Under the pieces are notes generated by a model that did not search any database, was not told the DNA's origin, and worked only from the letters and a program-made list of their open reading frames with translations. The position numbers and the translations under genes were made by a program. DNA of 64,000 nt from Raillietiella orientalis (taxonomy: Eukaryota). This document shows, one piece after another, positions 545 through 64,000 of this stretch (position 1 is its first letter; every line of letters starts with the position of its first letter). Where the stretch lies: assembly GCA_036172245.1 (NCBI GenBank), contig JAYWIR010000075.1:1-64000 (forward strand), written 5' to 3'.

Positions 545-736
545 GGAGGTTGCTGGCTGCAACGAGGCTGCCAGATCCTCCGTGGCTCGCGCGAAGGCTA
601 CGTCATCGATGGTAGTGTCGATGACGGACGCCGCCGCCGGCTCGCTCCCCTCGCTGTTGACAGAGTCAACAGAGGGGTTGTCGTCGGTAGCGGCGAGTTC
701 TTTTCGCAGCTGTCGGGAATACGCTCCACGACAACG
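545..736 (-). mobile_element. LINE family A copy A3, ORF1 internal piece between insertions B3 and E1
   Basis: Encodes VVVERIPD..; homologous to 44565-44770. Continues at 6532 across a 9-bp TSD. Confidence 0.85.
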
Positions 737-9128: not shown

Positions 9129-10661
9129 TGGTCGTTCCTATTGGTGCGGCGTGGGAGGGGCTGTCCGACTGGATTCGCCTGGAGATCCCGACCGCTTCAT
9201 CCTTCCAATACTTGGGCGTTCCGCTGGGGAACGTGAGCCCAGTGCAAGTGTGGTCGGGCTGCCTTCGGATGTCTACGAGTGCTCTGAGGCCGTTCCACTA
9301 CGGCAGGTTTCTCCTTTTTGAGCAGGCCGCGGTATGGAACACCTTCGTTGCCTCCCTCTTGCGCCCCCTGCTTTTTCTTTGTACGCCCCCCTACTCAGCC
9401 AAGCTCCAGGCGCGAAGCCTGTTGAGGAACGCTCTTTGGGGCCTTCGAGGTCTAGAATTTGCCTCCAAGACTTGGCGGCTCCTCTTAGGGATGCTGGATT
9501 AGGCATCCTGACGCTGGAGAGAATCGAGTTGCAAGTGCAGCTTCGAATGTAGGCCTTGTGCGTCAAGCTTTGGTGCACTCTATGGTTTGCTCCCGCGCGC
9601 CTGCTTTTGCGACACTGCACCGGCAGCAATGAACTTCTGTCGCCCAGGCCTCACGCGGAGCGCGCCGCGAGTAGCTTCGTTTTCCCCTTGAAACTCCTCT
9701 ATCGGCCCTTGTTAGCCCAGGAATGGATCTCCTGCCGCCTAACAAACTTTGAAGCCTGGCGGCAGGAACCCTTGCATGCTTGGGCAAAGCAACAGGATGT
9801 TTAGCTTCTGGAGCTCCGTTGCGCTCACCTCTTTTCGTACTGCACGGTGGATGAGGTGTGCAACAGCCAGGAGAAGTGGACCCGCCTGGCCGTCGCGCCG
9901 CTCGCCGACGCACTGTCAGCCCTCAGGGCAAGAGATGACAGCCGCGAAACGGCGAGAAGGGAGGTGGCCTGCACCATTGCAGGAACAACACGACCTATTG
10001 GCGGCTGGAGGACTTGCGAGCTCGCAGATGCCGCCACGCCTCGCCACGTTCCGAAGGGACTCCTTCGGTGGAGCGAACACTTGAGTGTGCCCCTTGAAGA
10101 ACTTGTGGTTCCTCCCTCGTGTCTGAACACTTCTGTGTTCCCCCTTTCGTGGAAGCAGGACGTGATTATGCTGGTGCATTGGGGTTTTCACTCCAACCAG
10201 CGCACGAACCTTGTTTCCGGGGGAGTCGTCTCCCCGAACTCTAAGCGGTGCGGGGAAGTGGAAACGCTCCCGCACCTGCTCCTGGACTGCGATGTCCTCG
10301 AAGGACTGTGGCGGAGGCTGGCCTCAGCTCTCCAGAAACAGTGGGACACCTCGGGAGAATTGATGCACCGCTTCTCTACGCCAGGCGGTCTGTCGTTAGG
10401 TGCTGTCATCGCAACGGTCTGTTGCACCCGCGCCATCGAAAAGGCCCACCGAGAGTTCGAGAAGCTGGCCATCCTTCGTCAGCCCTCCGGAATAGCCAGC
10501 GCGAACACGTCGTCGGCTGCCGAATGGGCCCATCTTCAAGGGGGCGTTAGGAGAGAGATCGCCGGCATTCATCGCCGGTTCTGAAAGAAAGGAACGGCCG
10601 TACCAAAGACCCCTGTCCCCTACCCTCCATATCTTTATTTTTATTTTCTTTATTTTTATAT

Positions 10662-43416: not shown

Positions 43417-43440
43417 CGTGCGCCAGGGTGGACGTGTTTT
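43401..43440 (+). promoter_or_regulatory. Inr/DPE-like core promoter spanning the A1 junction (also 47538-47573, 7746-7711, 48932-48967, 560-525)
   Basis: GCA(+1)GTC with A at 43403 and GGACGTG starting at 43430, i.e. +28. Confidence 0.6.
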
Positions 43441-45443
43441 CTCGGTGCTCCTCGTGCCAGGAAATCTCCCCCAGTACAAGCGTCGTGTGGTTCGGTGGTA
43501 GATCAGGCGGCGATGCCTGACGCAACCACCAGGGATGGCCAGAGAACAGCGGCAACGCCGCCCCCAGAGGCGATGGAGGTGGGGGCATCCGCCCCCACAG
43601 AATCAATCCCCGCTGCAGCGCGGGCGTGGAGCGCCGTTGTGTCGGCGCCATCGCCTACAGCCGCGGCGGAATTGTCGGCCTATGTAGAGGAGGGCTACAA
43701 CCCCTCATTGTTCTACAAGGTAGGCAATCTATATTCTTTAGAGAGCGCGCGCGCCTTCTAAAAGGGCATGCACGCTCTCGATGTGAAAGAGGAGGAGCTC
43801 AGCGCTATGATCATTCGCAGCAGGGGTCAGTACGTTGAGGTCATCTGCAAACAAGCAGAGCTGGCCCAACGACTGCTTAAAACCCCCGTTGTGATGGGGA
43901 CCCGCAGGCTCCTCCCCACTACGGCGGACCGCAGCATTGTGGTCCACCTGTTAGGCGTAACCGCGCGAATGCGCAAAGAACAGGTTCGCGCCGCTCTGGA
44001 ACAGTTTGGAACCGTCCACGCGCAGTGGACGAAAGTTAGTCCTTTCGAGGACTACACGGAGCTGCAACACGGCCTCACGGCTGCGCGCGTGACCGTTCGG
44101 GAGGGCTGCACCCTACCCCACAAACTGGTGGTCGAAGGCGAAACCGTCGACCTCTGGTATGTGGGGAAGCCGAAATACTGCGGCTTCTGCAATACGTCGG
44201 GCCACCTCAAAAAGAGGTGCCCAACGTGCAGTGCCAAGTATGCGGCACAATGGGTCACACGAGGGAGGTGTGCCCAAAAGCAGCAGTGCGGGTGGTTTCC
44301 AAGAGAAACCTTAAAAAACGCGCCCGGCTGCTGCAGAAAAAGCTGGCGGCGGAAGCTGCCGCGAAGGCTGTGCCACCCGCGCCCAAGGCCCAGGCCGCAC
44401 CCGAGACTTCAGCGAACAACGCCGAACAAGTAGAGGGAACTAGCCAGGAGCCTGGGTGGTAGGTGGCTACGGCCAAAAAATCAAAGAAGTAGAGGAGATT
44501 GGAGAAAAAAATCGCCTACCAACAGAACAAGAAAGAGCAGGGTAGCACGATAATTAAAGAGTACAGCGTCGTCGTCGAACGCGTTCCCGATGTTGCCGAA
44601 CGCTGCCAGAAAGAACTCGCCCCTACCGACGACCTCCCCTCTGTTGACTTTGTCAACAGCGAGGGGAGCGAGCCGGCGGCGGCGTCCGTCATCGACACCA
44701 CCATCGATGACGTAGCCTTCGCGCGAGCTGCGGAGGAACTGGCAGCCTCGTTGCAGCCAGAACCCTCCAAGGCTGGCAAGAAGGCCGTAAGGCGTCCGGC
44801 CTCCCCTCAAGAGTCTCCCACTTCCGACTCCGAGGTAGAGACCGGAAGCGCAGCCTCCGTTTCCACGGCACCGCGCAAGAAGGCTGGACGTAATTCCACA
44901 AAGCAAAGGAGGTTCGTCTCCCCCGTCGAAGGGGAAGAGATGGCTTCCGCAAGCGAGGGTGCCATGAGCGTGGGAAACTATCAAGACCCGTCGCTCGAGA
45001 GACTCCCAAGCGCGGACACGGAAGGGATGCAAGGGGTGGAGGCCGATCAGTGCCTCAGGTGCCTGAGAAGGCCTACACCTTCATGGACATCCCGCCCGCC
45101 TCGCAAGAGACGGGCACCCCCACACCTTAATCTTCCCAGCAGTAATGCCGAAAATCTCCTTCTGCCGTCGTCTGCGCATCGCCGTTTGAAACGTGAACGG
45201 CATGACAGACGCCAGCAGGAGACGAGACATGGCCGCCCTTCTGGAGTCCTACGACCTTGCGCTGCTGCAGGAGATCCACGTGATCTCTGCAGAACAAGCG
45301 CAAGAGATCGAACGGATCTCCGAAGGGCGGCTGTGGTACAGGTGTGGGAGACCGAAAAGTTGCGGTGTCGCCTACCTACTTCGGCCAGCCGTCGAGGCTG
45401 CGGCTAGGGGCGTGCGGTTCGACGATTACGGTCGTGTCGGCCA
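43417..45443 (+). mobile_element. LINE family A copy A1, ORF1 (ATG 43513, disrupted) and start of ORF2
   Basis: GGACGTG at 43430; CCHC knuckle; TAATG at 45143; carries empty B and E target sites. Confidence 0.92.
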
Positions 45444-47553
45444 TTTACACCCGGATGTGCCGGGGCATTTATTTCTTTGAAATAAAAATACATGAAATGT
45501 CGCGTGGCGAACGCGAAGGTTCACCACTCCAAAACAGCTTGCTGGTTACCGGGTCAATGCCGGAAAGGTAAATTCCATGCGCGGGTATGGGAAATAAAGA
45601 AAAACTTAAAGAAACAAAAAGTTCAAATGTGGGTGGGGAACAAATGTGGTAGGGGTGGGAGGGCAAGGAAGGGATCACGGTGCGCGTGGACAGGTCCTCT
45701 AGATCCTGTTCAGGTTCCGCACAAGCTGAGTCCTTTCAGCGCCCAAGTGGCGCCACTTGCAGAGACTGCGCGCGAAAAGGCGAGTCCAGTGTAAGGCGTT
45801 GCCGGTTGGCTGACGCCTTCTTCTGGTGGCGTTACAACCCGCAACTATTCCTCTGATGCAGCAGAGGACTGCTACACTAGCTGGCGGGGACAAGGCGTCA
45901 CTACAGAAAAGGCGCCATAAAACGTCCTTTGGGACGCATCCGCGCAAGTCCAGGATAGCCGCGAGACGATCCCAGAAAAAGCGGACGGCTCTGCACTCAA
46001 GGAGAAGGTGCGAGAATGTTTCTTTTTCCCCACACCGGTCACAATTAGGATCCACAGCCCCCCGGGTGGTGTGGTGCAGGCGTGCTTTGAATGGTAATCC
46101 CCAGAGTACCACAATCAACGCCACATCCTGCCATTCCAAGGGGAGGGATGCACTGTTCCAGGACGCTGGGTGCCACTTCATCTTTTCCGGAGATAGTCCG
46201 AGTAGCTCGCCCCAGCGTCCAATTCCGTTGGGCGGGACACTCGGCGTCGCAGCGTCAGCTAGCTGCCGAGATATCCACGCCTTTATCGATTGTGTGCTGC
46301 CGCCTCTGGCGCAGGACACGGTCCATTTCCCCTGCTCGCTACTGTCCCTGGCATTCACAAGGAAGGGCAGCACTGGGGCGAGATGGGTTATCAAGGCCCA
46401 CAGAAGCTTGTCGTGGGACTGCACGATCTCCTGCAGCGTCCAGCGGGCGTGCCTTTTCATACACGTGTTCCTTGTGCCCTCCGGAACGTGGATCTTTCCC
46501 CAGGTGGAGACTCACTCGTGCAACCAGGCAGAGTAGTTCCCTGGGAGGCAGGAGATCCAGGCATTCTTCCGAACCGCAACGAAGATGCGTCGCAGCATAG
46601 AGCCACAGTGTGCTCTTCTGCAGATGCGCGCAGACAGAAACGACAAAGTCCGCCGGATCCTCAGGCTCGTTGGGCCAGGAGTCGTGCTGGGATGCACCAG
46701 GGCGTGTCTCACATTTCTGCCGCGAGGGCGAGAGTCCTAAACTGTAGTTGCACTCCCATGCGCTTCAGCGTAAGAACGCCAATTCCACCGTCCTCACGTG
46801 GAGCGCACAAGTCTTTGAGCATCACACGGGACCTCTTTTTGCCCCAAAGGACTGGCATCTGGAGGCCCGCTGCTCGTTTCCGAATAAAATAAGGGGCGGG
46901 CAAACAAAAAGTAGGGGACGGAGGAGGGAGGCCGCAAACGCGTTCCACACCGCGGCCCGTTTCTGCAAGTAGAACTTGCCTTCTTGGAACGGACCGATCG
47001 CCAACGCTGCCTTTTGGAGACGGTCGGACCAGGCTTCTGATGCGCAGAAGTCCCCCAAAGGAACGCCAAGGTAATTGAAGCACCTGCCCGTTGGGATCCC
47101 CAAGCGGATCCAGTCCAACCTCCAACCCATGCCGAACCGACAAAGACCATGGACGACTTCGCCCTGTTCACCTCCAGGCCCGTCCCGCGGCGCAGAAACT
47201 CGAAGTCCTCGAACGCACTCGCCGGGGTGGACTGGGGAAGCAGGAGCAGAAGATCGTCGGCATAGGCCGACACGGCAGGCGTGCCGGGACACGAGCTCGG
47301 CAGGGTTGCCAAAGTCTCCCTGTATGCTCTCAGCACCAACTCAAAGTAGATGTTGAAGAGCAGGGGGCTGAGGCTGCCACCCTGCCGGATGCCACGACGA
47401 ACCGGCACGCCGAACACGTGCCGGCCGCTGAAATTAATATTGATGAACGCGAAATGCCAGCAGGAGCGCAGGTAGGACTGGAGCACGGCCGGGAAACCCA
47501 TGCGTTCCAGGAGCTCCAAAAGGAGTTCCTGGTCGACGCAGTCGAAAGCTTTA
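45444..47553 (-). mobile_element. LINE family F, 3' half of ORF2 and 3' UTR
   Basis: QGGSLSP, YADD, CDRC..H...C; 3' hairpin at 45450-45464; begins at KAFDC where A2 is joined. Confidence 0.9.
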
Positions 47554-48947
47554 CGTCGGCTAGAGCGGACGTGTTTCCTCGGTGCTCCTCGTGCCGGGAA
47601 CCGTCCCTAGGTGTAGGCTTCGTGTGTGGTGGTGGTCGATCAGGCAGCAATGTTTGACACGACCACCAGTGCGTGTCAGGGGGCGGTAGCAACGTCGCCT
47701 CCTAAAGAAATGGAGTGCCAGGAGGCGGCGGCAACGTCGCCTTCAGTGGCGAAGGAGGTGGGGGAGTCCGCCCCCACAATACCGGTCCCCGCTGCAGCGC
47801 GGGCGTGGAGCGCCGTCGTGTCGGCGCCATCGCCTGCAGCCGCGGCGGAATTATCTGCCTATGTGGAAGAGGGGTATAACCCATCACTATTCTACAAGGT
47901 AGGAAATTTGTATTCTTCTGAGAGTGCGCGCGCCTTTTCGAAGGGGATGCGCGCTCTCGATGTTAAAGAGGAGGAGCTCTGCGCTATGACCATTCGTAGC
48001 GGGGGGCAGTACGTAGAGGTGATCTGCAAGCATGCAGATCTGGCCCAACGTCTGCTTAAAACCCCCGTGGTAATGGGGACACGCAGGCTCCTTCCCGTTA
48101 CGGCGGACCACAGTATGGTGGTCCACCTTTTAGGAGTTACCGCGCGGATGCGGAAAGAACAGTTACGCGCCGCGTTGGGAAAAGAAGGCACGGTCCATGC
48201 AGTATGGACCAAGCCTAGTCCTTTCGAGGACATTACCACAGTTCAGTGCGGCCTCACGGCTGCTTGTGTAACCGTTCAAGAGGGCTCTATCCTTCCCCAC
48301 AAACTGGTGGTCGGCGGAGAAAGCGTCGACCTCTGGTACGTGGGGAAGCCCAAATACTGTGGCTTCTGCAACACGTCGGGACACCTCAAAAGGAGGTGCC
48401 CCAACGTACAGTGCCTGGTATGTGGGACAATGGGCCACACGAGGGAAGTGTGTCCACAATCCGCTGTGCGCGTGGTTTCCGCAAGGAACCTAAAAAAACG
48501 CGCGCGGCTGCTACAGAAAAGGCTGGCGGCGAAGGCTGCCGCTCAAGCTGTGCCACCCACTCCCGTGGTCCAGGCCTCAGCCGACACCCTGGCAACGAAT
48601 GCCGAAAAGATCGACAAAAGCGGTCAGGTGTCGGAATGGCAAGAAGCCACAGCGAAAAAGAAAAAAAAGTCGAAGAAAGAACGACGAATTGAAAAAAAGC
48701 TCGCCTACCAAAATAAAAAACAGCAGGTTAGCGAGAATTTAAAAGAATGCAGCGTCGTCGTGGAACGCGTCCCCGCCGAACGCCGCAAGGTAGAAATCGC
48801 TGCTACCGACGAGCAACCCACTGTTGAAAATGTCAACAGCGTGGGGAGCGAACCGGCGGAAGCGTCCGTCATCGAGACCGTGATCGATGACGCCGCCTTC
48901 GAGCGTGCGGCGGAGAGCTGGCTGCATCGTTGCAGCCAGCCCCCTCC
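47554..48947 (+). mobile_element. LINE family A copy A2, left part (ORF1 from ATG 47650)
   Basis: Open ORF with two CCHC knuckles; resumes at about 60527. Confidence 0.92.
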
Positions 48948-51265
48948 GCGGCCAGTAGGAGGACGTGTTTTTCCTTCACTCCCCAAAGAGTAGTAGGACA
49001 GCGCTTTTTCTTCTGTGTGGTGTTTTGTGTACATCGTCGGTGTCCAATGGCCACGACGCCAGAGGACACCGCGATGGAGGTGGGAGTGGGGGAGGCTAGT
49101 TCTCCCCCACAGCCTACTGGAGCAGGGGCAGCCGCCCCGGAATCATCCCCGGCCACGCCGAGGACATGGAGCGCCATGGTGGCCGCGCCCAGCGCAGAAG
49201 CCATGGCGGAGATGGCCGCATACAAGGCCTCCGGGTACAAGCCGTCGCTTGTGTACCAGGTAGGCAACTTGTTCGACGGCCGGACAGCGCGCGCCTTCAG
49301 CAAAGCGTTGAAGGACGCGAATGTTACAGAGAAGGATCTGGACGGCCTCTCCGTCCTCAGCGGCGGGCAGCGGGTCGAGGTGGTCTGCAAAGATGTCACC
49401 TTGGCTCACCGCCTAATTCATGCGCCGCTGAACGTAGACGGCCGCAAGATCCTGCCAGTATCTATGGACCGCTCCGTGGTGGTCCACATGACTGGCATCA
49501 CCAGCCGCATGACGCGGTCAGCGGTTGGTGAGGAATTACGGAAGTACGGTGAGGTGCACGCACTGTGGCCGAAACCCTCCATTTTCGACGGCTTCGATAG
49601 CCTTTTTGGTGGGCAGGCTGCAGCGCGGGTCACCGTACGGGAGAATTGTGGGCTTCCCCACAGACTACAGGTGGCGCAAGAAAACGTCGACCTGTGGTAT
49701 GTAGGGAAGCCCCGGTATTGCGGGCATTGTGATACCGTGGGACACCTACGTAAAAGGTGTCCCAAAATACAATGCCATTTGTGCGGGGAGCGGGGCCACG
49801 TTCGGCGCGTGTGTCCCAAACGCCCCACCCCGGTTCCCCCTGCCGCGAAAAAAGCGCAGGGGACACGTGCTTCAAAGGTCTCTAGACCTAAAGTAGAAAA
49901 GGGCCAGCACAAGCTGCCAACACCTCAACCTCCGGCGCGTAAGCCGGAGGATAAACCTTCTGAAACGGTGGAAGGCGAAGAGGGATGGCAGCTTGTAGAG
50001 GCCCGAAAGCCGAGGAAACTCCCACCCGCGGAGAGCAAAGAGCGCAAGACGGCCGGTAAGCCGAAAAAACCCGGTCCGCGCTCGAAAACTTTGCGCGAGT
50101 GCACGGTGGCACTGGAACGAATCGTCGTTCCCGAGATTGCCACCCGGAGCGTCGATCCTCCCCTTGCCTTTTCCGCTGCGCCCGAGGCTCGCAACGGCGT
50201 ACCCTCTGTTTGCACAGAGGGTGAGCCGCGCGACATAGCGGCGGTCGAAGCCGCGCACGCCGCGTTCGCGCAGGCGGCGGAGGAGCTCGCAGTCACGCTG
50301 GCCGAGCGTGAGAACCCCTCGCGCAAGGCCGTGCGAAGGCCGGCTCCGGCGAGGAAGGCCCCCAAAGGTGAGTTAGACCTGGGGGCCGGAAGCACATCCT
50401 CCTCCTCGGAGGCACCCCCCAGAAAGTCGGGACGCAAGTCCCAGAAGCCCAGGAGGCGCCTCCCCTCCACCAGCGAGGAGGAGAAGACGGAAGCCGTCGC
50501 CAGCGTGGGAAATTCGGAGGAGGAATTCCCACGCTCGGAAGCCGTCGATGCGGCCACCCCCATGGAGGAGGGTGAACAGGGGATGAAGTCCCCCCTGCAG
50601 GCGCCGACCCTGAACAGCCCGCCCCCATGGAGGAGGGCGAACAGGTAGGCGCGACTCCACCTGCGGGTGATCCGGCCGACGCGCCGGCACCGATGGTGGA
50701 GGGGGACCAGGTGCCTTCAGCACCTGACCCCCCTGCTCCACCTAGCGTCCCGCCCCAGCAGGTGGCGGACGCCGCACTGCCATCTTCCCAGGAGTAACAC
50801 CTGGGCTCGCCAGTCGCCGTCGGATTCGCGCGGCCTGTTGGAATGTCAACGGGCTGCGCGACGACGGTCACAGGCGAGATACAGCCGACACCCTGCGGGA
50901 GTTCGACCTGGCCCTGTTGCAGGAGATCCACGTGATCACCGCGGCAGACGTCCAGGAGATCGAGACGATCGCGGGGGGTCGGCTGTACTGGCAATGCGGC
51001 ATCCGCAACACCTGCGGGGTCGCGTTCTTCGTGAAGCCGGCCATCGACGCTGCCGTGAAGGGCGTGCGCGTCGATGACGACGGTCGGGTCGGTCAGCTGA
51101 CTCTCGGCTGGTCGGACTCGATCGATCTGATCGTCACGAATGTGTACGCCCCAACCGGTCAAAAGGGATACAGCAACCGTACCAGGCTGCTTGAATCCTT
51201 GAAGCGCGACTGGCTGGCGAACACGAGCGTGCGGAAGGCTCACCTGATAGCGGGAGATTTCAATC
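48948..51265 (+). mobile_element. LINE family B full-length copy, left part (ORF1 ATG 49047; endonuclease up to GDFN)
   Basis: GGACGTG at 48961; CGHC..GH..C and CHLC..GH..C knuckles; resumes at 57173. Confidence 0.92.
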
Positions 51266-51342
51266 GAGTGCGGACGTGTTTTCTTCGCTCTCGTCTCCGT
51301 GCTTTCATCCGCTTCATCTTGGCGTCGTACATTTTGACGACG

Positions 51343-53266
51343 ATGTCGACCCAACTTGAAGCTACTGAAGTTGGAGGAACAGCATCCGGATCTGCAATCG
51401 CGGAACCGACGGCCGCCTCCACTTCGTCTTTCTCGCCAATGGAGAGGAGTTTTGCTGACGTTGCTGCCACAGCAGCCGTCAAAGGGAAACCACTCGACGA
51501 GTCGGAGGTGCGGGCATACGTAGCCCAAGGCTATAGACCTGCTCTCCGATATAAGGTGAGTGGTTTTCTTTCTGCGCGCGACGGGAATCAGTTCAACGAT
51601 GAACTGACGCGTGTTGGCGTGCGGGAGGAGGACCTTCTCGCCATTATGCCCGTAAAAGACATGGGCTATTTCAAGGTGCGTTGCAAAGACGCTGCACTTG
51701 TGCAACGTTTGCTGCGCACCCCGTTGTCGATCCGTGGCCAGAAGGTCTTCCCGGCCGCCATGGACGACTCATTTGTGGCGGAGATTTTCGACATCGAGTC
51801 GGAAATCTCCGATTTTGATATTCGGAACGCGTTGGCGAAATTCGCCACGGTCCATGCGCTGTGGAGGGTGCGTAGCAACCTCAAGGACTTCCCGTCCATA
51901 CACAGCGGAGTCGCTGGAGTCCGGCTTACAATGCCGGACCGCCGTCTGCTGCCCACCAAACTACAGGTGAATGACACGGTCGTTCACCTGTGGTTCGTGG
52001 GCAAAGTAAAAACGTGCGAGCAATGCGGGAAGGAGGGGCATTGTTTGGATAAATGCCCCTCTGGAAAATGCCGTTATTGCAAACTATCCGGGCACCAATT
52101 GAAAAATTGCCCGGATCTTTTGCGAAAAAAGGCAACCGCGGAGCTCCATTTTAAAAAACAAAGCGCGGATAAAAAGAAAAAATCTGCGAAAAACCTGGAG
52201 ACCCCACGGCAGAAATTCGGTAAAAACGCGAGGCGGAATGTCGCCCCAAAGCAGCAGGAAACCTCGCACGCGAAGCCCTGCGCACCCCCTCTCGCGGCAG
52301 GGGAGCCGCAAAAGAAAGGGTGCGGGGAATCCGGGGCAATGGTAAGTCCCCCTAGGCGCAATAGCTGTCCTTCCCCAGCACGCCCGGCTCTCTCGGAGTT
52401 CGAGCAACCGGCGGGGACGTCAATGGACAACGGCGGTAAGGACACTTCCAGTACCGTCAGATCCATTCCTTCACCTCCTGCAGTGGCTGAGAAGCCCAAA
52501 TCGGGTAAGAAGGGTTGTGCCGTGTCGACTTCGAAAGTCGGCAAAAAAAAAATCCGCGTCGCGATCCAACACCGCGAAAGCGGACAAAAATCTCACGCCG
52601 TCGCAGTCGGAGAGCAAGCTCTCGACTGGCGCGGATGCCATGCCAACGAAGGGATTAAAAGCCCTTCCGAAAGCAGCGTCCATGACGAGCGTGTCGGAGC
52701 CATCGAAAGGGCTCCCGTCCAAAGACGCGGATGGCTTCAAAGATGGCCATGGAGTACAATCTCCATTTACGGCGCCACGCGAAGTGAGGAACCGTAATGA
52801 AGTAAAGAAGACTTCAGCAAAGGTCCCTCGTGCAACTGCGCGTGAGCACGCTGAAAACGCGCGCGCCGGGAAAGCAGCCGTCACCAAAAGCGATGCCCTG
52901 GTGACGGAAAACGAAAACAGGACAGCTGTCAATCCAGCAGAACCTGTCACTGCTTCGCGGAAGGCCGAAATCCGATCGAACATGCGCCGGTCGGACTCCG
53001 AAATGGATGCCGTTCCGATCACCGAGACGAGGACAACTCGTTCGAAAGCGTGTGCGCGCCGATCAAAAGTAGGCAGCCAGGCAACGCTCGCCGCGAAGCA
53101 ACGCGAAGTCTCCACGAAACCCGACGGGGTTCAGCCTGGCGTGGAGGCATTACATGCATGCAGCACGACAGAGGACGGTGGCGACTGTCCCCTCCAGCCA
53201 GTCGTGCTGCTCGCAGTCTGCTCGCCGGATAAAGCGAGCAAAAAGCCGCCACCTTCCCAGCAGTAA
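51343..53266 (+). CDS. Family C ORF1 (two CCHC knuckles), with one +1 frameshift probably at the A10 run 52543-52552
   Basis: CEQCGKEGHCLDKC and CRYCKLSGHQLKNC; the downstream frame ends at the TAATG overlap. Confidence 0.82.
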
Positions 53267-56200
53267 TGCGGGGAATCGCGTCTTCTCGTCGTCTGTCCGT
53301 AACGTGTTGGAACGTGAACGGACTGCAGAACGACGAGAAGAGGAGATTAGTAGCCAACGCCCTGCGCCCCTTCGACCTCGCGCTCCTGCAGGAGATTCAC
53401 GTAATCTCCGACGAGCCGGCAGCCGAAATCGAGGAGCGCGCAGGCGGAACGCTACATTGGCGGTGCGGCGGCGCACACACGTGCGGCGTCGCGTTCCTCG
53501 TAAGAGGAAAAATGGCGGAAGCGGTGCGTAGTGTTCGTTTCGATGACAACGGACGGATAGGCCAGCTTGTCATCAAGTGGTCCGAGTCCATCGATCTCGT
53601 CGTTACGAACGTCTACGCGCCGAGTGGCTCTCGCTACCTCGAAGACAGAGTAGCTTTCTTTGGTGAGGTGCAGAGCCACTGGCTCAACAACTCCGGTTTC
53701 CAAGTGGCGCACCTCGTCGCTGGGGACTTCAACGTCCGCCTGCTCTCCGACGATTGGAGCCGCCCGAGGAAGCGCGCGCTGCCCATCGAGATGTGCGCGT
53801 CCGTGCACGCCGCCAACTTGATGGTCAGCGAACCTGGAATGGAAAGATCGCTCGATCACGTTTTCCTCGATGAAAACCTGCATTCGCGTGTGGGCAGGAG
53901 AGGAAGATTGTTGACTAGGCTTTCTGACCACCACAGGTTGGAGTTTGAGATCCTTCCGCCAGGCAGGGGGCCTCCGTTGCAAAACTGGAGGATGCAGGCG
54001 GATTGGCTTAGCCAACCGGAGGCTGCGGAGCATCTACGTGGATACCTCCGAGGCTTTGCCATTCAAGAACTTGCGGACTGGGACGATCTCAAAAGATCAG
54101 TCCGCGAGTTCTGCTGCCAATTCCCCTTGCACCGGCTTCCACGCGGTTTCGGAGAGGGCGTGGCCAACAGTAGAGACTTTCTGCAGGCCCGCACGTTTTC
54201 GAGACGCGCGGATGTCGGGCGTCTCGCAGAGTACAAGGCGAGGGCCGAGCGCCAGGTCTGGCAGTCCGGAGCAGCATGCCTGTTGGACGACAAAGGCCAG
54301 GAATGTTCGGCCCCAGCCGAAGTACGCCGCATTGTGAGACGCTACTACTCCTCGCTCTACGCGGATTCCCCGACGGAGGATATTCTTTCTGAGATACTCC
54401 TGTCTCAGGATGCTCGTGTTGTCGGCGAGGAGGACCGCGAACGTCTCGACGAGCCCTTCACGGCGGATGAATTTTCGTCCGCCATCGCTGGGCTGAAGAG
54501 ACGAAAGGCGCCAGGCGAGGATGGGCTCCCTGCAGAGTTTTATCAGTGCTTTGCAGTGGAGCTCATTCCTTTGATGCTGATACTCGCGACGCTGATGAGT
54601 GAATCCGGGAATGTCCCTGATTCCTTCCGCTCAGCGAAGGTGCGTCTCCTGCCGAAAGGCGGAGACTTGCGCCAACTTAACAACTGGCGTCCGATCACCT
54701 TGGTGAACTCGGACGTCAAGTTGTTTTCCAAGCTGTGGGTCGCGCGGCTAGGAAGAATCGCGGAATCTGTGGTGAGCCCGGAACAAACCTACGCGATTCC
54801 GGGACGATCCATGGAGGCGAACATCCTTTTCGCGCGTACATGGATGCAGCTGCAGGAAGTTGTGGCGCAGCAAAGCCAGGCTGCTGCGAAAGTCACTGCC
54901 GCAGGCAAAAAGAACAGGCGCCGACGGCAGGAGGGAACGCCAGGTGCCTTGGCGGTTGCGGTCGATCTCCACAAGGCGTTCGACTGCGTAAACCAGAAGC
55001 TGCTTTTGGAGCTTATGGAACGCCTTGGGTTCCCGGCGCAACTCCTGCTGTATTTGCGCGCGTGCTGGCGCCACGCGCTAACCTGCATCACTTTTAGCGG
55101 CTGCCGCGTGTATGGTATTCCCGTTCGTAGGGGCATCCGACAGGGCGACAGCTTAAGCCCGTTGCTCTTCAGCATCTTCTTTGAGTTGGTGCTAAGAGCA
55201 TACAGGCTGACGCTGTCTCACTTGCCAAGCTCCTGCCCGGGAACGCCTGCCGTGGCCGCCTACGCTGATGACCTGCTTCTTCTGCTCCCCATGTCCACCC
55301 CGGCGTCCAGTGTCGAGGATTTCTTCGACCTGATTCGTCGGGGAGCTGGCGTGAGCGTGAACAGAGAGAAGAGCGTGGTCGTTCCTGTGGGTACGTCGTG
55401 GGAGGGGCAGTCCGACTGGATCCGCCTGGGGATCCCCACGGGCGGGTACTTTAAGTACCTCGGCGTTCCGTTGGGCGCTTTCGGCGCAGCCGAAGCGTGG
55501 GCGGACTGTCTTCAGAAAGCAGAGTTGGCCATCAGCCCGTTCTTTAACGGCAAGTTTACCTTGCAGGAACGGGCGACTATTTGGAACACCTTTGTGGCCC
55601 CTCTCCTCCGTCCCCTGTTTTTTGTTTTGGACCCCCCCTATGCGGCAAAACAGCGGGCTAAGCGCCTGCTCAGGAACGCTCTCTGGGGTCCGGCGAGATC
55701 CAGGATCCGCCTTAAAGATTTGTCAGCTCCGCGTCGGGATGCTGGTTTGGGTATCCTGACAATGGAGCGAATCGGACTGCAGGTGCAGTTCCGACTGCTG
55801 GCACTGTGTGCCCAGCTATGGACATCCCCCCTGTGTGTGCCAGCTCGCATTCTCCTGCGGAGATGCGCCGGCAGCGGAGGATTTCTCTCGCTTTTGCCGG
55901 GCACTCAATACAGGAAGCGGGGTTTCGGATTTCCATTGCGGCAGTTGACCGCACTTCTGGAAGCACACTCTTGGATCTCCTGCCGCCCAATGAACTTTGA
56001 AGCTTGGCGGCAGGAGTCTGTTGAATCCTGGGCGGCGTTCCAAGGAATACGCCCTGAAGATCTTCGCCCCCTGCGCCAATTTTTTCCACGATCCTTGGAA
56101 GAAGTACTGCGGGACGAGGTGAAGTTTTCTACCCTGGCTGCCACGCCTCTTGCCGCAGCGCTGTCTGCCCTCAGAGCAAGAAACGACAGTTACCAACCGG

Positions 56201-56859
56201 CGAGGTGGGAGGTTTCCTGCACGATAGCGGGAAGAACCAAACTCCTTGGCACCTGGAAGACAAGTGAGTTGGCGGACGCCGCCACTCCTCGTGCTACTGC
56301 AAAGGGACTTCTCCGGTGGGCAGAAGAACTTGCTGTCACCCCCGAAGAACTTGTAGTCCCTCCACAGTGTATGGACAGTTCGCTGCTCCCCCTTGCTTGG
56401 AAACAAGCCGTGCTGCTTTTCGTTCACTGGGGTTTTCAGTGCAACGAGCGTTGGCATCGTGACTCCGGGGGACTTGCGTCTGCGAACTGCGTTCGGTGCG
56501 GATCGACGGAGTCGATTCCGCACCTACTTCTGGACTGCGGTGTCCTACAAGGACTGTGGCGTAGGCTGGCAACAGCACTATTGCATCCCGTGGACACCTC
56601 AAGAGACTTGCTGCGACGATTCTTCACGCCGAGCGGGCTTTCAGTAAGCGCAAGGATTGCAACCATCGGTTGCATACGCGCGATAGTTTCCGTCCGCCAG
56701 GCGTTGGTACTCAACGGACAGTACCAAGAGGTAATCAGCAAAGCATCCTTCTACATGGGAGCATCCGCTAGATGGCCTCATTTGACAGAGGAGACAAAGA
56801 GGAATCTCGCCGCAATACACCGCCGGTTTACACACCCTCATCAGCGGCCAACCCGGTGA
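53266..56859 (+). CDS. Family C ORF2, intact 1197-aa APE endonuclease / reverse transcriptase / Zn-finger protein
   Basis: WNVNGL, QE, YAP, GDFN, DH, SDH; KAPGEDG, WRPITL, DLHKAFD, QGDSLSP, YADD, YLG; CVRC..H...C. Confidence 0.96.
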   Translation: MRGIASSRRLSVTCWNVNGLQNDEKRRLVANALRPFDLALLQEIHVISDEPAAEIEERAGGTLHWRCGGAHTCGVAFLVRGKMAEAVRSVRFDDNGRIGQLVIKWSESIDLVVTNVYAPSGSRYLEDRVAFFGEVQSHWLNNSGFQVAHLVAGDFNVRLLSDDWSRPRKRALPIEMCASVHAANLMVSEPGMERSLDHVFLDENLHSRVGRRGRLLTRLSDHHRLEFEILPPGRGPPLQNWRMQADWLSQPEAAEHLRGYLRGFAIQELADWDDLKRSVREFCCQFPLHRLPRGFGEGVANSRDFLQARTFSRRADVGRLAEYKARAERQVWQSGAACLLDDKGQECSAPAEVRRIVRRYYSSLYADSPTEDILSEILLSQDARVVGEEDRERLDEPFTADEFSSAIAGLKRRKAPGEDGLPAEFYQCFAVELIPLMLILATLMSESGNVPDSFRSAKVRLLPKGGDLRQLNNWRPITLVNSDVKLFSKLWVARLGRIAESVVSPEQTYAIPGRSMEANILFARTWMQLQEVVAQQSQAAAKVTAAGKKNRRRRQEGTPGALAVAVDLHKAFDCVNQKLLLELMERLGFPAQLLLYLRACWRHALTCITFSGCRVYGIPVRRGIRQGDSLSPLLFSIFFELVLRAYRLTLSHLPSSCPGTPAVAAYADDLLLLLPMSTPASSVEDFFDLIRRGAGVSVNREKSVVVPVGTSWEGQSDWIRLGIPTGGYFKYLGVPLGAFGAAEAWADCLQKAELAISPFFNGKFTLQERATIWNTFVAPLLRPLFFVLDPPYAAKQRAKRLLRNALWGPARSRIRLKDLSAPRRDAGLGILTMERIGLQVQFRLLALCAQLWTSPLCVPARILLRRCAGSGGFLSLLPGTQYRKRGFGFPLRQLTALLEAHSWISCRPMNFEAWRQESVESWAAFQGIRPEDLRPLRQFFPRSLEEVLRDEVKFSTLAATPLAAALSALRARNDSYQPARWEVSCTIAGRTKLLGTWKTSELADAATPRATAKGLLRWAEELAVTPEELVVPPQCMDSSLLPLAWKQAVLLFVHWGFQCNERWHRDSGGLASANCVRCGSTESIPHLLLDCGVLQGLWRRLATALLHPVDTSRDLLRRFFTPSGLSVSARIATIGCIRAIVSVRQALVLNGQYQEVISKASFYMGASARWPHLTEETKRNLAAIHRRFTHPHQRPTR

Positions 56860-57142
56860 TCATTGCCCTACCCTCCATAAACTAAATTTGTATTTTCTTT
56901 TTACACCCGCGTCCCCATAGGCTCCGGAACATTTGAGGTGCTCATCGTTTAAATCCCCGTGAGTACGGAGCCTAGCCAAAAACCCTTTTCCCTTCCCTCC
57001 AGTTTTTGATTTTTGTTTGTTTCCCCTCATTCCCCCCACGCTGCGAGCGGTTTGTTTACCAGGCCTGCGTGGCGGTAATTTTTCTATGTTCTCTGTCGTT
57101 CTGTTGGTTGGGGACATTGTCCCTGACCAGTTTATTATTATT

Positions 57143-57170
57143 AATAAACGCCCCGGCGTGACCGGGTGAT
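57143..57170 (+). other. Conserved LINE 3'-terminal signal AATAAA-CG-C-CCCGG-N5-CCGGG-TG
   Basis: Found at seven element ends in the window (one degraded). Confidence 0.85.
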
Positions 57171-57172
57171 AA

Positions 57173-60100
57173 ATTTCAATCTCCGCCTGATAACAGGTGA
57201 GCCGGAAACACAGGTGAACGCGATGAACGAGTTGTGCGCCGCCATGCGTGTGCGCAACTTGTTCGCGGGTGAGAGGGGAATGGTCCGCAGCATCGACCAC
57301 GTCTTCCTCGACGCTGACCTGTGTTCACGGGTCGGCAAACGGGGGGGGGTTGCGTCAACGTTGTCGGACCATTCCCGGTTAATTTTCGAGATGCGGCCTC
57401 GCGACAAAGGACCGCCATCCAGAGACTGGCGTCTGCCGGGGGACTGGACGCGACTCTCAGGTGCGAAGGAACACCTTCGCGAATACCTGAGAGGCGTCAC
57501 GCTCCGGAATCTCCAAGACTGGGACCTTTTCAAGGAATCGGTCCGGGAGTTCTGCGAGCAGTTCCCCCTGGACCGCCTGCCCTCCGGATTCGGCGAGGGT
57601 CCTCGCAACCATCGGGCCTATTTACAGGCCCGAAGGTACGAGCGACCCCCTAATGTCCGTCGCCTGGCCGAGTACCGCGCCGGGGCCGAACGCCAAGCCT
57701 GGCAATCCGGGTCGGCCAGCTTGCTGGACGACCAGGGCCGGGAATGTTCGTCCCCGGCGTCGGTACGGCATCTCGTGCGGAGTTATTATTCCTCCCTTTA
57801 CGCCAGAGCGCCCCCGGATCAAGATGCCTCTCGGCTCTTGCTTCCGGATGGTGCCGCGGCAATAGGGGAGGAGGAGTCGTTAAGCCTCGATGAGCCTTTT
57901 ACCACCGGCGAAATTCTCGCCGGTATCAAAAGGCTCAAGAGGCGGTTAGCTCCAGGGGAAGACGGCTTGCCCGCGGAGTTCTATCAGAGCTTCGCGGAAG
58001 GGCTGGCGCCCCTGCTGCTTCAGCTGACAAGGCTGATCCGAGACGAAGGCGATGTTCCCGCCTCGTTTCGGTCAGCCAGAGTGAGGCTCCTTCCGAAAGG
58101 GGGAGACCTTAGGAATTTGAACAACTGGCGTCCGATCACGATTGTGAATACGGACGCCAAGTTGGTTGCCGGGCTATGGGCTTCGCGTCTGGGGCAGGTG
58201 GCAGAATCCATTATTAGCCCGGAGCAGACATATGCTGTTCCCGGGCGAAGTATGGATGCCAACCTCTTCTTCGCAAGCACATGGATGCACCTGCAGAGAA
58301 GAGAGAAGAAAGGGATAGGCAAAGTCGGCAACCCCACATTGGGGCCGCCAGCCGGGCTGGGAAGGGACTCCCGGGCGGGGAAGGGGGCCTTAGCGCTCGC
58401 AGTCGATCTCCATAAGGCGTTCGACTGTGTTGACCAGGGGCTTTTGTTGGAACTCCTGGGTCGCATGGGCTTCCCACCCTCCTTGATCAACTACCTGCGC
58501 TCCTGCTGGCGCCATGCGATAATTTCCGTCTCTTTCAGCGGTCAGAAGGTGCATGGCGTGCCGGTGCGGCGGGGCATCAGGCAGGGAGATAGCCTGAGTC
58601 CCCTGCTCTTCAGCACCTACTTTGAGTTGGTGCTGAGAGCCTACAGGGTGACTTTGGCCTCCTTGCCTAGCTCGTGTCCCGGCACGCCCGCCGTAGCAGC
58701 CTATGCCGACGACCTTCTCCTCCTGTTACCTATGTCCACCCCGGCGAAGGCGGTCGGAGACTTCTTCGATCTGCTCAGCCGTGGGACCGGACTGCAGGTC
58801 AACAGGGCGAAGTCGTCGGTGGTGCCAGTAGGTGCGGCGTGGGCAGGGCAGCAGGACTGGGTCCGTCTGGGGATCCCCACGGCGAGGTGCATCAAGTACC
58901 TTGGTGTGCCGTTGGGTGACTACTCCCCTGCGGAAGCGTGGTCCAGCTGTCTTCAAAAAGTCGATACGGCGATCGGCCCGTTCCTGGAAGGCAAGTTTCA
59001 CTTGCCGGAACGGGCCGCGGTTTGGAACGCCTTCGCGGCCCCCATCCTCCGCCCCTTGCTTTTTGTTTGCCCCGCCCCCAGACAATGCAAAAAGAGGACG
59101 AAGGACCTCCTCCGCATCGCCCTTTGGGGCAAGGGGAGGCCCCGAGTCCCTCTGCAGGACTTGTGCGCTCCGCGTCGGGACGGCGGCCTTGGCCTCCTGA
59201 CGCTGGCGCGCGTGGAAATCCAGCTGCGGTGGCGAACCCTCGCCATCGCAGCGAAGATGTGGAGCACCCCTTGGTGCGTTCCGGCCCGCCACCTCGCCAG
59301 GCGTGTGTCCCGATGCGAAGGACTCGCGTCGTTTCTTCTGTGCCCTGGCCGGAAGATCCGAAGATGCGGCCTTATGCTCGGACGCATAGCAACCTTGGCG
59401 AAGACGAACGGTTGGATGGTTTGTGGCCCCGCCAACTCCTCCGCCTGGTTAGAGGAGTCTGCTGGCACATGGGCTAAGCTGAACCGGAGGAGCGAAAACC
59501 ACATGAACTGCCTGCGAATCGGCCCATACGCCAACCGCACCCTGCGGGAAATACTGGAATTTCCTCGGAGTCGCAAGTGGGCGTTGACGACCCCCCTTCT
59601 ACGGCGATGCCCTACCTCCTGAGGGCGCTTCAGGATTGCCAGAAGCCGAGGTGGCAAGTCACCTGCCAGATCGCAGGCAGGAAGAAGATGTTAAGCGGCT
59701 GGACCACAGGAGAACTGGCGGACGCCACGACCCCGAGCGTCCAGCCGCGTGGACTAATGAGATGGGGCGAGCTGCTCGCCATCCCTACGGATGTGCTGAA
59801 GTGGCCCCCGGTATTAAAGGACTCCAGGATCCTGCCCCTTAAGTGGCAAGAGTCGGCGTTGCTTTTGTTGCACTGGGGTCTACCCTGCAACGCGCGCCGC
59901 TTCCACTGGACGAGGGGAGCTGTGGATCCTGCGTGTGCCAGGTGCGGGGAGCGGGAGTCGCTTCCCCACCTTATTGTGGATTGTGCTGCCCTCCGACCCC
60001 TTTGGGAACGGTTCGGGACGACCCTCGGGCTCCCTACGGGCAGCACCCCCAGAGACGTTCTTCGGCCCCTCTTCGTGAAGGACGCACTGCAGCCAGCCGC

Positions 60101-60526
60101 AGCCATCGCAGCCTTGTGCTGTGTCCGTGGCATCGTGGCTGCATGGAGCGACGCCAATAACGAAGGAGTGGGTCCACACGCGAGGGATGTCATCCCATAC
60201 GCCCAACGCTTCATGCGGAGAGCTGCCGGATGGCCCCAACTGGGGAATATGCAGACTGACCTCGAGGGCTTCGTTCGACGGATGGGCCCTCCTCACAGCG
60301 TTCAGTGATCCCTTCCCTGCCCTCCAACTTCTTTTTGTCTGTTTATGTTTTTTATTTTTATTTTTGTTTTATCCCCATCCCCCTTCGCTGCTGAGGAACG
60401 CTACGCTGGGCTGCGTCCCGGCGTCCCGGCAGGTCCAGTGCATATGGCCGTGAGCGGGGCCTTGTACCGCGGATGTAGAGTTGTTTTTTTAAAAAAATGA
60501 ACGCCCCGGGCGTACCCGGGTGTAAA
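57173..60526 (+). mobile_element. LINE family B, right part (ORF2 with one frameshift near 59590, stop 60308, 3' UTR)
   Basis: FN-LRLITGEP continues the GDFN split by C; terminal hairpin at 60505-60520. Confidence 0.93.
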
Positions 60527-62368
60527 CCTCCAAGGCTGGCAAAAAGGCAGTGAGGCGTCCGGCCTCCACCGAGGAGTCGGTAACTTCCGACCCCGAAGCG
60601 CAGGCCGGAAACCAAGTTTCCATCTCCGCGGCACCCCGCCGGAAGGCTGGAAGGAAGTCCAGCAAACCTTGGAAAGCCCCTCTCTAGGCCGAAGGCGTGG
60701 AGATGACTTCCGACTGCGAGGGTGCCATCAGCGTGGGAGAATCCCACGAATCGTCACCCGAGAGACCACCACGCACAGACACGGAGGAGATGGAGGGGGT
60801 TGAAGCCGGAAAGGTACCCAAGGTGCCTGAGGAGGCTGAAACCCTAATGGTCATCTCACCCGCCTCGGAAGAGGCGAGTTCCCCCACACCGTCATCTTCC
60901 CGGCAGTAATGCCGGGAATCTCCTCCCGCCGTCGTCTGCGTATCGCCGTTTGGAACGTGAACGGGATGATAGACGCCGGCAGGAGACAAGACATGGCCGC
61001 CATGCTAGGATCGTTCGACCTTGTGCTGCTGCAGGAGATCCATGTGATCTCTGCAGAACAAGCGCAGGAGATCGAACGCATCTACGGAGGGCGGCTGTGG
61101 TATCGGTGTGGAACATCGAGAAGTTGTGGTGTCGCCTACCTGCTTCGGCCCGCCATCGAGGCCGCCGCCCGTGGAGTTCGGTTCGACGATCACGGTCGTG
61201 TCGGCCAGCTGACTCTCAGCTGGTCCGACTCGATCGACCTGATCGTTACGAACGTTTACGCCCCGAGCGGAGCGGACCTGACGAACAGGAGGCCCAAGAA
61301 ATAATTTTTCCTTGCCCTCCATCGCGACTGGTTGACCGAGGCAGGCGTGCGGAATGCCCATCTGGTTGCAGGCTATTTTGAAGTTCGTCTGAAACCGGAT
61401 GGGCCGAATCACGAGCGTGACCTGGTCAACGAGGTGTGCGCGGTTGTACACACTTGTAATTTGTTGGCCAGTGTACCAGGGATGGAGGACAACATCGATC
61501 ACGTGTTCCTTGACGAGCACCTGTGCACTCGTGTGGGCAGGCGCTGCAAGTTGCCGTGCGAGTTTTCCGATCATCGACCAATCGTGATTGAAATCCATCC
61601 GCGCGACAGGGGCCCCCCCTCGTCAGCGTGGCGTTTGCCAGGGGACTGGCTAAAGCTCCCGGACGCGACGGAACATCTCCGCACGTTTATACGGAGCTTT
61701 AGGATGCAGACACTTCAGGATTGGGACCGCTTCAAACGGTGGGTCCAGGAGTTCTGCGACGAGTTCCCTCGGCACCGCCTACCTTCGGGATTTGGGGACG
61801 GGGTACTTAACGAACGAGCCTATCTACAGGCTCGCCGTTACACCAGGACCCCCGACATCCGCAGGCTGGCGGAATACAAAGCGGGAGCCGAAAGGCAAGC
61901 CTGGCAGTCAGGATCGGCCAGCTTGCTGGACGATCAGGGCCAGGAGCATTCGGCACCCGCTCAGATCCGCGGTCTGCTGCGGCGTTTTTACTCCTCCCTG
62001 TACGCAAAAACGCCTTCTGAGCGGGATTTCTCACGAATCTTGCTTCCGAAAGGCGCTCCTGAGATCGGGGAAGAGGAGAAAAAGTCCCTTGACGAGTCTT
62101 TCACGATGGGCGAGATCTTCTCGGCCATCGGAAAGCTCAAGAGGCGAAAGGCTCCAGGGGAGGACGGCCTGTCCGCGGAGTTTTATCATACTTTCGCGGC
62201 TGAGCTAACCCCCCTGGTACATCAACTCACCTTGCTGCTACGCGAGGCAGGTGACGTTCCCGCCTCGTTTCGTTCGGCAAAGGTGCGGCTTCTCCCTAAG
62301 GGAGGAGATCTGAGGAGCATGAACAACTGGCGTCCCATCACAATAGTGAATGCGGACGCCAAGTTGAT
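60527..62368 (+). mobile_element. LINE family A copy A2, right part (ORF1 end, ORF2 from 60909)
   Basis: cctccaaggctggc.. continues A ORF1 as in 44764-44800; cut by G after WRPITIVNADAKL. Confidence 0.9.
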
Positions 62369-64000
62369 AGTTGCCACCCGGTCACGCCGGGGCGTTTATT
62401 AAAAATTCTCTTTGATTCGTGGTACGAGGCCCCACTACGGCCAACTCAACTGGACCTGCCGGGTCGCCGGTACGCAGACCGGCGCGACTCTCCTCGGCAG
62501 CGGAAGGGGGTGGGGGAAAAAACAAAAAGAAAAATAAAACATAAAAACAAAAAGATTTAGGAGGATTGGGGAGGGATCACTGACCACTGGGAGGAGGGTC
62601 CATCCTTCGCAGGATGCCCTCGAGGTCCGTCCGTATAATTCCCAAGTGGGGCCATCTGGTCACAATCCGCAGGTAGCGGACTGCAAGTACGACTGCATCC
62701 CTGTCGTGGCTCGGTCTTCCGACGTTGCTCCAGCACGTCACAATCCCGCGTACGCAGCAAAGTGCAGCCAGGGTAGCGGCTGGACGCAGGGCATCATGCA
62801 CGAACAGAAGCCGAAAAACGTCTCTGGGCTGGCTGCCCTCCTGGATTCGTAGGGAGGCACGAAGACGTTCCCACAGGGGTCGGAGGGCAGCACAATCAAC
62901 AAGGAGGTGGGGGAGAGTTTCCCGTTCCCCACACCTGATGCAGGTAGGATCTACTCGACCCCTGGTCCAGTGGTGGCGGCGTGCGTTGCAGGGTAGACCC
63001 CAATGCAACAACAGAAGCGCCGACTCCTGCCACTTCAGGGGGAGGATCCTAGAACCAATTAATACCGGAACCACTTCAGGTCATCCGGCTGGATGCCGAG
63101 TAGCTCGCCCCATCTCTGAAGTCCTCTTGGCTGGACACTGGGGGTACTGGCGTCCGCCAGTTCACCCGTGGCCCAGCCGCTGATCAACTTCTCCTTGCCT
63201 GCGATGCGGCAGGAGACTTGCCACCTAGGCTTGCGGCTGCTGGAGAGCGCCCTCCTCAGGAAGGGCATCGCCGTAGCTAGGGGGGTTGTCTCTGCCCACG
63301 TGCTTCTCGCGGGACACTGGAGTATCTTCCGCAGAGTGCAGCGGGAATAGGCGCCGCGTCGCAGGCAGTTCCACATCTCTCCGTTCTTCTGGTTTATCTT
63401 CGCCCACGTGCCAGCTGTCTCCTGCAGGCATGCGGAGGAGTTGGCGGGGCTGCATACCATCCAGCCGTTTTCCTTAGCCAGAGTTGCCATGCGTCCCAGG
63501 AGAAGTCCGCATCTCTTGATCTTCCTGCCACGGCACAGAAGATAGGACGCGAGACCCTCCGTCCCGGATACACGGCTGGCAAGGAGTCGGGCCGGAACGC
63601 ACCAAGGGGTGCTCCATAACTTCGCTGCGATGGCGAGGGTTCGCCACCGCAGCTGAATCTCTACTCGCTCCATCGTCAAGAGGCCGAGACCGCCATCCCG
63701 ACGTGGAGCACACAAGTCCTTCACCGGGACTCGGGGCCTCCCTCTTCCCCAAAGGGCAATTCTCAGGAGGTCCTTTGTCCGTTTTTTCAACTCTCTGGGG
63801 ACGGGGCAAACAAAAAGCAGGGGGCGGAGGATAGGAGCCGCGAACGCGTTCCATACCGCGGCCCGTTCCGGAAGAAGAAACTTGTCTTCCAGAAACGGGC
63901 CGATCGCCGTTTCCACTTTTTGGAGGCAGCCGGACCACGCTTTTGCAGGGGAGTAGTCCCGCAACGGCACACCAAGGTACTTCAAGCACCTCGCCGAGGG
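62369..64000 (-). mobile_element. LINE family G (B-related), 3' part of ORF2 and 3' end; continues out of the window
   Basis: KYLG..CIRC..H...C, stop at 62577; AATAAA and hairpin at 62400-62377. Confidence 0.9.

Follow-up and report, generated by a model that had tools for sequence, protein, structure and literature searches.

The first 64,000 nucleotides of contig JAYWIR010000075.1 from Raillietiella orientalis (assembly GCA_036172245.1; this whole stretch, read on its forward strand, is referred to as the window) contain two GC-rich blocks, 1-14,000 and ~34,300-64,000 (58-62% GC), which consist almost wholly of long interspersed nuclear elements (LINEs), most of both being tiled by tblastn with the open reading frames (ORFs) of the window itself. 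Judged by their sequences, the left 14 kb and the right 30 kb are nests of three sibling LINE families with an apurinic/apyrimidinic endonuclease (APE), here called A, B and C, whose proteins share ~57% identity between families in ORF2 and 33-44% in ORF1. The subject of this work is the insertion of A and B elements into one another and into their siblings, since an initial annotation had proposed that B enters one fixed site of A ORF1 while A lies in a B-like reverse transcriptase (RT) gene, so that the two families would target each other.

The right nest reads C4 (+) > B' (-) > A1 (+) > B'' (-) > A2 (+) > {B1 (+) > C1 (+); G (-)}. Its outermost member, C4 (38430..41314, +; 5' end approximate), is a C-like 5' part with ORF1 and APE and is interrupted by B' (41315..43415, -), a B-like 3' portion that starts at RT motif A, reaches the 3' hairpin and hosts A1 (43416..45443, +). 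The latter comprises the 5' terminus, ORF1 with an empty B site and the APE start of ORF2, and is cut at 45443 by B'' (45444..47553, -), a further B-like 3' portion covering the same parts, which in turn is the host of A2. The 5' terminus and ORF1 of A2 up to B1 (47554..48947, +) were placed by junction reading and tblastn; A2 resumes at 60527..62368 (+) with a CCTCC duplication, the ORF1 tail and ORF2 from the APE to the early RT, where it is cut by G (62369..64000, -), a B-like 3' portion that lies antisense in the A2 RT and runs off the window. The interval 48931..60560 had been taken for a family B insert, and B1 is indeed present at 48948-60526, but those 11.6 kb are not one element: B1 proper (5,663 bp) consists of 48948-51256 (+; a 99-nt 5' untranslated region (5'UTR), an open ORF1 of 533 amino acids (aa) at 49047-50648 and the APE start of ORF2) and 57173-60526 (+; the rest of the APE, the RT, a C-terminal zinc region and the 3' hairpin), and the remainder is C1 (51257..57172, +), a full-length C LINE of 5,916 bp nested in the B1 APE. 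Public sequencing data include one run, X1, whose contigs contain part of the window (23% of its words), with no RNA run listed; the contig joints cited here are those among the matches listed, and one of them connects 51256 to 57173, i.e., a B element without C1. Both ORFs of C1 are open (ORF1, 51343-52797, 484 aa; ORF2, 53266-56859, 1197 aa, encoding APE and RT), and a duplication of 8-9 bp, TTTCAATC, flanks the element, which is the innermost and youngest of the nest and may still be active.

The left nest reads D (+) > A3 (-) > {C2 (+); B2 (-)}. D (7730..10659, +), the 3' portion of a C-like LINE from RT motif A to its 3' end, hosts A3, whose 5' terminus and proximal ORF1 (6533..7729, -) adjoin the D RT at 7729/7730 (+/-1) and whose distal ORF1 piece (545..736, -) lies between the insertions of C2 and B2. 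C2 (737..6532, +) is a full-length C LINE, antisense in A3 ORF1, with an 8-bp duplication, CGACAACG, at 729-736 and 6533-6540. B2 (1..544, -), sense in A3 ORF1, is a B-family 5'UTR with the start of ORF1, cut by the window edge, and its encoded protein matches B1 ORF1 at 98% and 89% (tblastn). One further C copy, C3 (34304..36664, -), is 5'-truncated and 95% identical to C2.

Regarding their anatomy, Pfam finds APE (Exo_endo_phos, PF03372) and RVT_1 (PF00078) domains in several ORFs, with E-values of 2.8e-12 and 3.3e-21, respectively, in C1 ORF2, and the same domain pair in B1 and C2. The zf-CCHC of B1 ORF1 scores 19.5 bits, under the cut-off of 20.8, and two CX2CX4HX4C knuckles can be read directly in A2 ORF1; likewise, zf-RVT (PF13966) reaches 17.7 bits in B1, under its cut-off of 27.5, and is carried by the nearest relatives. 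Among solved structures, C1 ORF2 matches human LINE-1 ORF2p best (E 4.6e-45), followed by R2 proteins (6.9e-16 or weaker) and the L1 endonuclease chains (6e-5 to 5e-4), the endonucleases of R1Bm and TRAS1 not being among the matches at E<=0.01. The nearest database proteins are 21-30% identical, mostly unnamed, and of APE + RT + zf-RVT architecture. By these comparisons the elements belong to the L1 group, either to the Tx1 clade or to L1 proper. In A, B and C, every one of the seven full-length 5' termini carries a shared terminal motif, GGACGTGTTT (GGACCTGTTC in C2), at a distance of 7-15 nt from the first base (744, 43430, 47567, 48961 and 51272 on the plus strand; 7717 and 531 on the minus strand), which may resemble arthropod downstream promoter elements. 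B and C end, without poly(A), in a hairpin of the form AATAAAC-GCCCCGG-CGTGA-CCGGG-TGnnAAA, whose 5-bp stem is conserved; compensatory pairs are 0/5, and covariation is uninformative here because the stem is invariant. Target-site duplications were found for B1 (CCTCC), C2 (CGACAACG) and C1 ((A)TTTCAATC), with matching empty sites in X1 contigs, and the 5' terminus of A is homologous to the termini of B and C that these duplications define.

The two B insertions in A lie at the same base. The junctions between A2 and B1 at 48947/48948 (+; ...TTGCAGCCAGCCCCCTCC/GCGGCCAGTAGGAGGACGTG) and between A3 and B2 at 545/544 (-; ...TTGCAGCCAGCAACCTCC/GCGGCCAGTTGGAGGACGTG) read exactly as the initial annotation had given them, and both B copies start directly after the CCTCC of A ORF1 (48943-48947; 549-545 on the minus strand). 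In A1, the empty site that had been pointed out is present as unbroken GCAGCCAGAACCCTCCAAGGCTGGCAA at 44753-44779, with CCTCC at 44764-44768; no other intact copy exists in the window, and 0 are expected from 100 shuffles. At its other end, B1 finishes in ...GGGTGTAAA at 60526, without poly(A), and A2 resumes at 60527 with CCTCC repeated (60527-60531), as had been noticed, which amounts to a 5-bp target-site duplication; beyond it, A2 (60524-61207) is colinear with A1 44761-45443 at 79.6% identity. An X1 contig joins 48947 to 60542 with AAGGCTAGC between them, and so represents an A copy that has CCTCC once and lacks B. A template switch, by which an A 5' part would have been joined to B cDNA, was considered and is ruled out for B1, since A2 resumes with the duplication. 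B lies in the sense of A ORF1, and the A2 ORF1 frame meets a stop at 48991-48993, 54 nt upstream of the B1 ATG at 49047, an arrangement in which B may be co-transcribed from A. Outside the window, A ORF1 had no match in a word-indexed protein search, and a full HMMER scan returned 244 matches at E<=1e-3, four of them at E<=1e-30 (43-69% identity); P0066, among those four, is unbroken through the region homologous to the B site, and a B-type junction tail is absent from the relatives at E<=1e-30. Metagenome scans gave 0 matches for the 5' terminus of B and 0 for that of A.

Are these two B insertions independent events? B1 and B2 are identical at 527/543 positions (97.1%; 48948-49492), and the adjoining A2 and A3 at 154/190 (81.1%; Fisher p 1.1e-11), which speaks against a co-inherited A-B chimera, the finding that, according to the initial annotation, would have overturned its proposal. 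The claim that A3 resembles A1 more than A2 is borne out, both in the 192 bp by the junction (169/186, 90.9%, versus 154/190, 81.1%) and over 1.1 kb (94.3% versus 82.4%), and A1, the B-free copy, and A3 are sisters with 98/100 support. The incongruence between B copies and their A hosts that had been proposed as a check is thus present within the window: A3 groups with B-free A1 and not with B-bearing A2. Furthermore, the outer hosts differ, as had also been stated, A2 lying in B'', a B-like RT, and A3 in D, a C-like one. Since the identity steps at the junction, A3 is the sister of A1 and the hosts are of different families, the two B insertions are best read as independent.

The A copies, in turn, begin in three of three cases (+/-1 nt) at the same RT base, antisense, in three different hosts. 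Their 5' termini, CGTGCGCCAGGGTGGACGTGTTTTCTCGG..., directly adjoin ...GTCGAACGCCTT at 43415/43416, 47553/47554 and 7730/7729, and in the RT sense the site, GTCGATCTCCAY^AAGGCGTTCGAC, encodes A-V-D-L-H/K-A-F-D, the motif-A block of the RT. An X1 contig that joins 43416 to 58414 on opposite strands shows the same kind of RT-A junction. The statement that A1 lies inside a B-like RT was verified (B' 41328-43415, minus strand, is 82.4% identical to B1 60517-58414), and D is C-like; the reciprocal half of what had been proposed is supported and extended, except that the target of A is the RT motif of both B-like and C-like elements and not of B alone. When D/A3 is compared with B'/A1, identity is 262/369 (71.0%) in the hosts and 1082/1155 (93.7%) in A (p 1.9e-27), with the best change point 8 nt from the junction, which falls within the 2-log-likelihood-unit (2-lnL) interval of 365-386. 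In a tree of the hosts (415 bp by the site), B' groups with B1 and D with C1, separated by a branch with 100/100 support, whereas A1 and A3 are sisters; near-identical A copies therefore entered RTs of two families at one position.

Of such RT sites in the window, four are intact and three are occupied. The intact ones in B1 (58402-58425) and C1 (54961-54984) are perfect, and those of C2 (4454-4477) and C3 (36352-36375), both unoccupied, have three mismatches each (3/24, at the insertion point), reading GATCTCTGCAAAGCG (Leu-Cys-Lys) and not GATCTCCAYAAGGCG (Leu-His-Lys), or in short form CTCTGCAAAGCG versus CTCCAYAAGGCG, with His changed to Cys. The sites are of two types, CTCCAYAAGG and CTCTGCAAAG, and the mismatched type may represent an escape from targeting, or chance. 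Half-sites of the A target number 7 for the right half and 4 for the left, as the nesting order predicts. A suspected fourth case, in which C4 begins close to an antisense RT fragment (38148-38425), was rejected, as it lies off the motif-A site.

The sequences show repeated, independent and base-precise integration of A (three times, antisense, in RT motif A) and of a young B subfamily (twice, in sense, in A ORF1) into sibling LINEs, with duplications that are typical of target-primed reverse transcription, and on these grounds we consider it probable that they target each other site-specifically. Several observations weigh against this. The comparisons that involve A2 step only weakly (76.2% versus 82.5%, p 0.01; 75.7% versus 82.4%, p 0.005), and their change points are off the junction. 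For the B insertions, maximum likelihood places the change point not at the junction but 77 nt into B, the junction (192) being barely within the 2-lnL interval of 187-282; this displacement is explained by the B 5'UTR being more variable than ORF1 (7 substitutions and a 2-nt indel in 99 nt, versus 9 substitutions and 1 indel in 446 nt), the 5'UTR having 7 substitutions in 97 aligned positions versus 36/190 in the A flank. The perfect A-target sites of B1 and C1 are unoccupied. For B2 and each of the three A copies, the view is limited to the 5' junction; by the half-site count, no A 3' end or A duplication is present in the window. The duplications of B1, C1, C2 and a ~980-bp insert in D have no common nick-site motif, and the sample comprises two B events and three A events in one 64-kb window. 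Moreover, the 3' end of B'', GTGTAAA, matches that of B1, yet B'' sits at a different site, and so do the related B copies that had been listed as a caveat (B' ends at 41315-41319 and G at 62369-62375). The specificity of B, as read from these copies, is thus that of one young subfamily with two events, and it is leaky, recent or subfamily-level.

Among the alternatives, the one that survives best, although we hold it to be unlikely, is that there is no true specificity, and that a regional preference, or purging elsewhere, has concentrated the insertions, the coincident sites being due to chance or to weak hot spots. Nearly every insertion with a readable host does lie in another LINE, no LINE matches fall in the AT-rich gene region (14-33 kb), and the C copies, B', B'' and G are found at varied sites with varied duplications of 5-9 bp. 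Nonetheless, each of C1, C2 and C3 has a site and a duplication of its own, and each of B', B'' and G yet another site, so that same-site insertion is not the default in this nest, and against that background the same base and orientation recur in 2/2 copies of the B1/B2 subfamily and in 3/3 copies of A. Given ~44 kb of LINE DNA and two orientations, the probability that a homologous base is hit again by chance is estimated at ~1e-4 or less per pair, and the triple coincidence of A would be far less likely still than that of a pair. No insertion into the same family was seen within the window.

Slightly less plausible, and quite unlikely in our view, is that a single entry of B into A was followed by its spread, through gene conversion or ectopic recombination via the A flanks, or that the A flank was overwritten by an A1-like donor. 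The many paralogous copies in the nest make conversion conceivable, a tract from an empty-site donor that stopped at the insertion edge would mimic the sharp identity step, and it is the 5' junction alone that can be seen for B2. However, A3 is A1-like over its whole 5' sequence of 1.2-1.6 kb and lies in another RT host, so that a whole copy with its flank would have to be replaced, whereas, had B been imported, the tract ends would have to fall no more than ~5 bp from the junction, since A3 and A2 differ at 2/7 of the final bases before it. Furthermore, conversion does not account for the recurrence of A, three times over, at a single site in hosts that belong to two families.

A single ancestral A-B chimera (and one RT-A chimera), spread by segmental duplication or composite retrotransposition, is very unlikely and is largely refuted by the present sequences. 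It would account for a blastn alignment of 1-736 with 49492-48753 that spans the junction in one piece at 91.5%, for the change point inside B, and for the antisense RT flank of A running ~2 kb to the host's own 3' end in 3/3 cases. A single chimera, or a composite of A and B, predicts equal divergence on both sides of the junction and B in the A1 lineage, and neither is seen: divergence is 19% on the A side versus 3% on the B side, and A1, the sister of A3, has an intact site with a single CCTCC. Besides, A1 and A3 are 94% identical when their hosts are 71% identical and of different families, and the 5' terminus of A has homology to those termini of B and C that are defined by duplications. 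As for an assembly artefact with collapsed or mis-joined repeats, which a region built of 70-97% similar repeats and one public run with 23% of the words might invite, it is barely credible, since every type of junction is present two or three times over and the sequences to either side of it clearly differ between these places, the duplications and the colinear resumption are exact, and X1 contigs independently show the empty A site, B without C1 and the junction of the A 5' end with an RT.

How might repeated site-specific integration into sibling LINEs be achieved? One route would be a sequence-specific APE endonuclease of the family itself, as in Tx1L, R1Bm and TRAS1. The other would be base pairing between the nicked target and a read-through 3' flank carried by the template RNA, as in R1-type elements; specificity would then be a property of the location of the master copy, which would account for the subfamily-level pattern. 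In either case, the net effect would be that new copies land in other LINEs, sparing the AT-rich host genes next door, and that the nesting C4 > B' > A1 > B'' > A2 > {B1 > C1, G} is built up. A more far-reaching scenario, a closed hyperparasitic LINE network in which A homes antisense into the RT motif A of its rivals (a knock-out and a safe harbour at once), the B subfamily homes in sense into A ORF1 and can ride the A promoter, and C2/C3 represent an escape variant in an arms race of base-pair precision, appears rather doubtful to us.

To our knowledge, nearly all LINE targets described so far are host multicopy genes or simple repeats. Excerpts of two sources describe Tx1L of Xenopus as integrating in the piggyBac-type element Tx1D, i.e., a LINE that targets another transposon (PMC4494074, PMC6719617), and the available part of a third treats the Tx1 and R1 clades as APE-type specific groups and names 'transposons' among LINE targets (PMC4640811). 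A and B resemble the Tx1 clade (Tx1L, Keno, Kibi, Koshi) in being APE-type LINEs of the L1 group that use one sequence of a multicopy target; unlike Tx1L, they enter protein-coding motifs in their sibling LINEs, namely RT motif A and the tail of ORF1, and targeting goes both ways. Passages on Zepp and ZeppL of green algae report the nesting of a LINE into its own copies, in arrays made mostly of the 3' ends of 5'-truncated copies of one family (PMC8226300, PMC3446292), whereas the present nest has seven full-length 5' termini, insertions between families and two base-precise families, and so does not conform to Zepp-like self-nesting. The elements share with R1/R2 and TRAS/SART the logic of settling at a single, strongly conserved position in a target of many copies, by which host genes are spared, but the targets of those are host genes or repeats and here they are mobile elements, and the best match is L1 ORF2p and not R2; the specificity of the R1Bm endonuclease is treated in an excerpt of PMC1919474. 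A full-text literature search of incomplete coverage yielded no LINE homing into the RT gene of another LINE and no description of a reciprocal LINE pair. LINEs that target other transposons (Tx1L) and self-nesting (Zepp) are thus already known, and the homing into an RT motif and the reciprocity would, as far as that search goes, be new.

If this is true, a LINE that homes into the most conserved coding motif of the RT of other LINEs, and a second family that homes back into the first, would mean that one transposon can be the niche of another, and nested, gene-sparing repeat islands would have a possible mechanistic origin. Site-specific LINEs are valued as models of target selection by endonuclease and RNA and as chassis for programmable insertion, and both sites would be new targets of short, defined sequence, each paired with a candidate cognate endonuclease of the L1 group.

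The sequence between the nests differs from them markedly. The intervening 14-33 kb has ~30% GC, its left edge being sharp (0.55 to 0.34 inside 200 bp near 14000), and carries on the minus strand the exons of a gene with BEACH (15953-16420, 1e-44; 18599-18991, 6e-20) and WD40-type propeller matches (14759-15523), in which tblastn with the window ORFs found no LINE match; given this contrast in GC, the composition of the LINE nests is very unlike that of the host. An exon of 748 aa at 29954-32200 within the same stretch has no match in the protein database, the Atlas giving weak eukaryote leads only, and scans of the window with Rfam and for tRNAs and tandem repeats revealed no rDNA, snRNA, tRNA or telomeric repeat that could be an alternative "real" target. 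At the edge of the left nest, 13051-13935 (-) is a distant LINE RT (30% protein identity to C1) that crosses the motif-A position unbroken and ends where the AT-rich host DNA begins. Between C3 and the next LINE fragment, 36665-38147 (1.5 kb, ~40% GC, strong GC skew) matches no LINE ORF of the window, so that C3 was probably inserted in non-LINE DNA. Finally, the ~980-bp insert in the RT of D (~8147-9128), read on the minus strand, ends in a hairpin, AATAAA and poly(A), and is flanked by an 11-12-bp direct repeat, GGTCGTTCCTA; by these terminal features it is a retroelement of another kind than the hairpin-tailed A, B and C.

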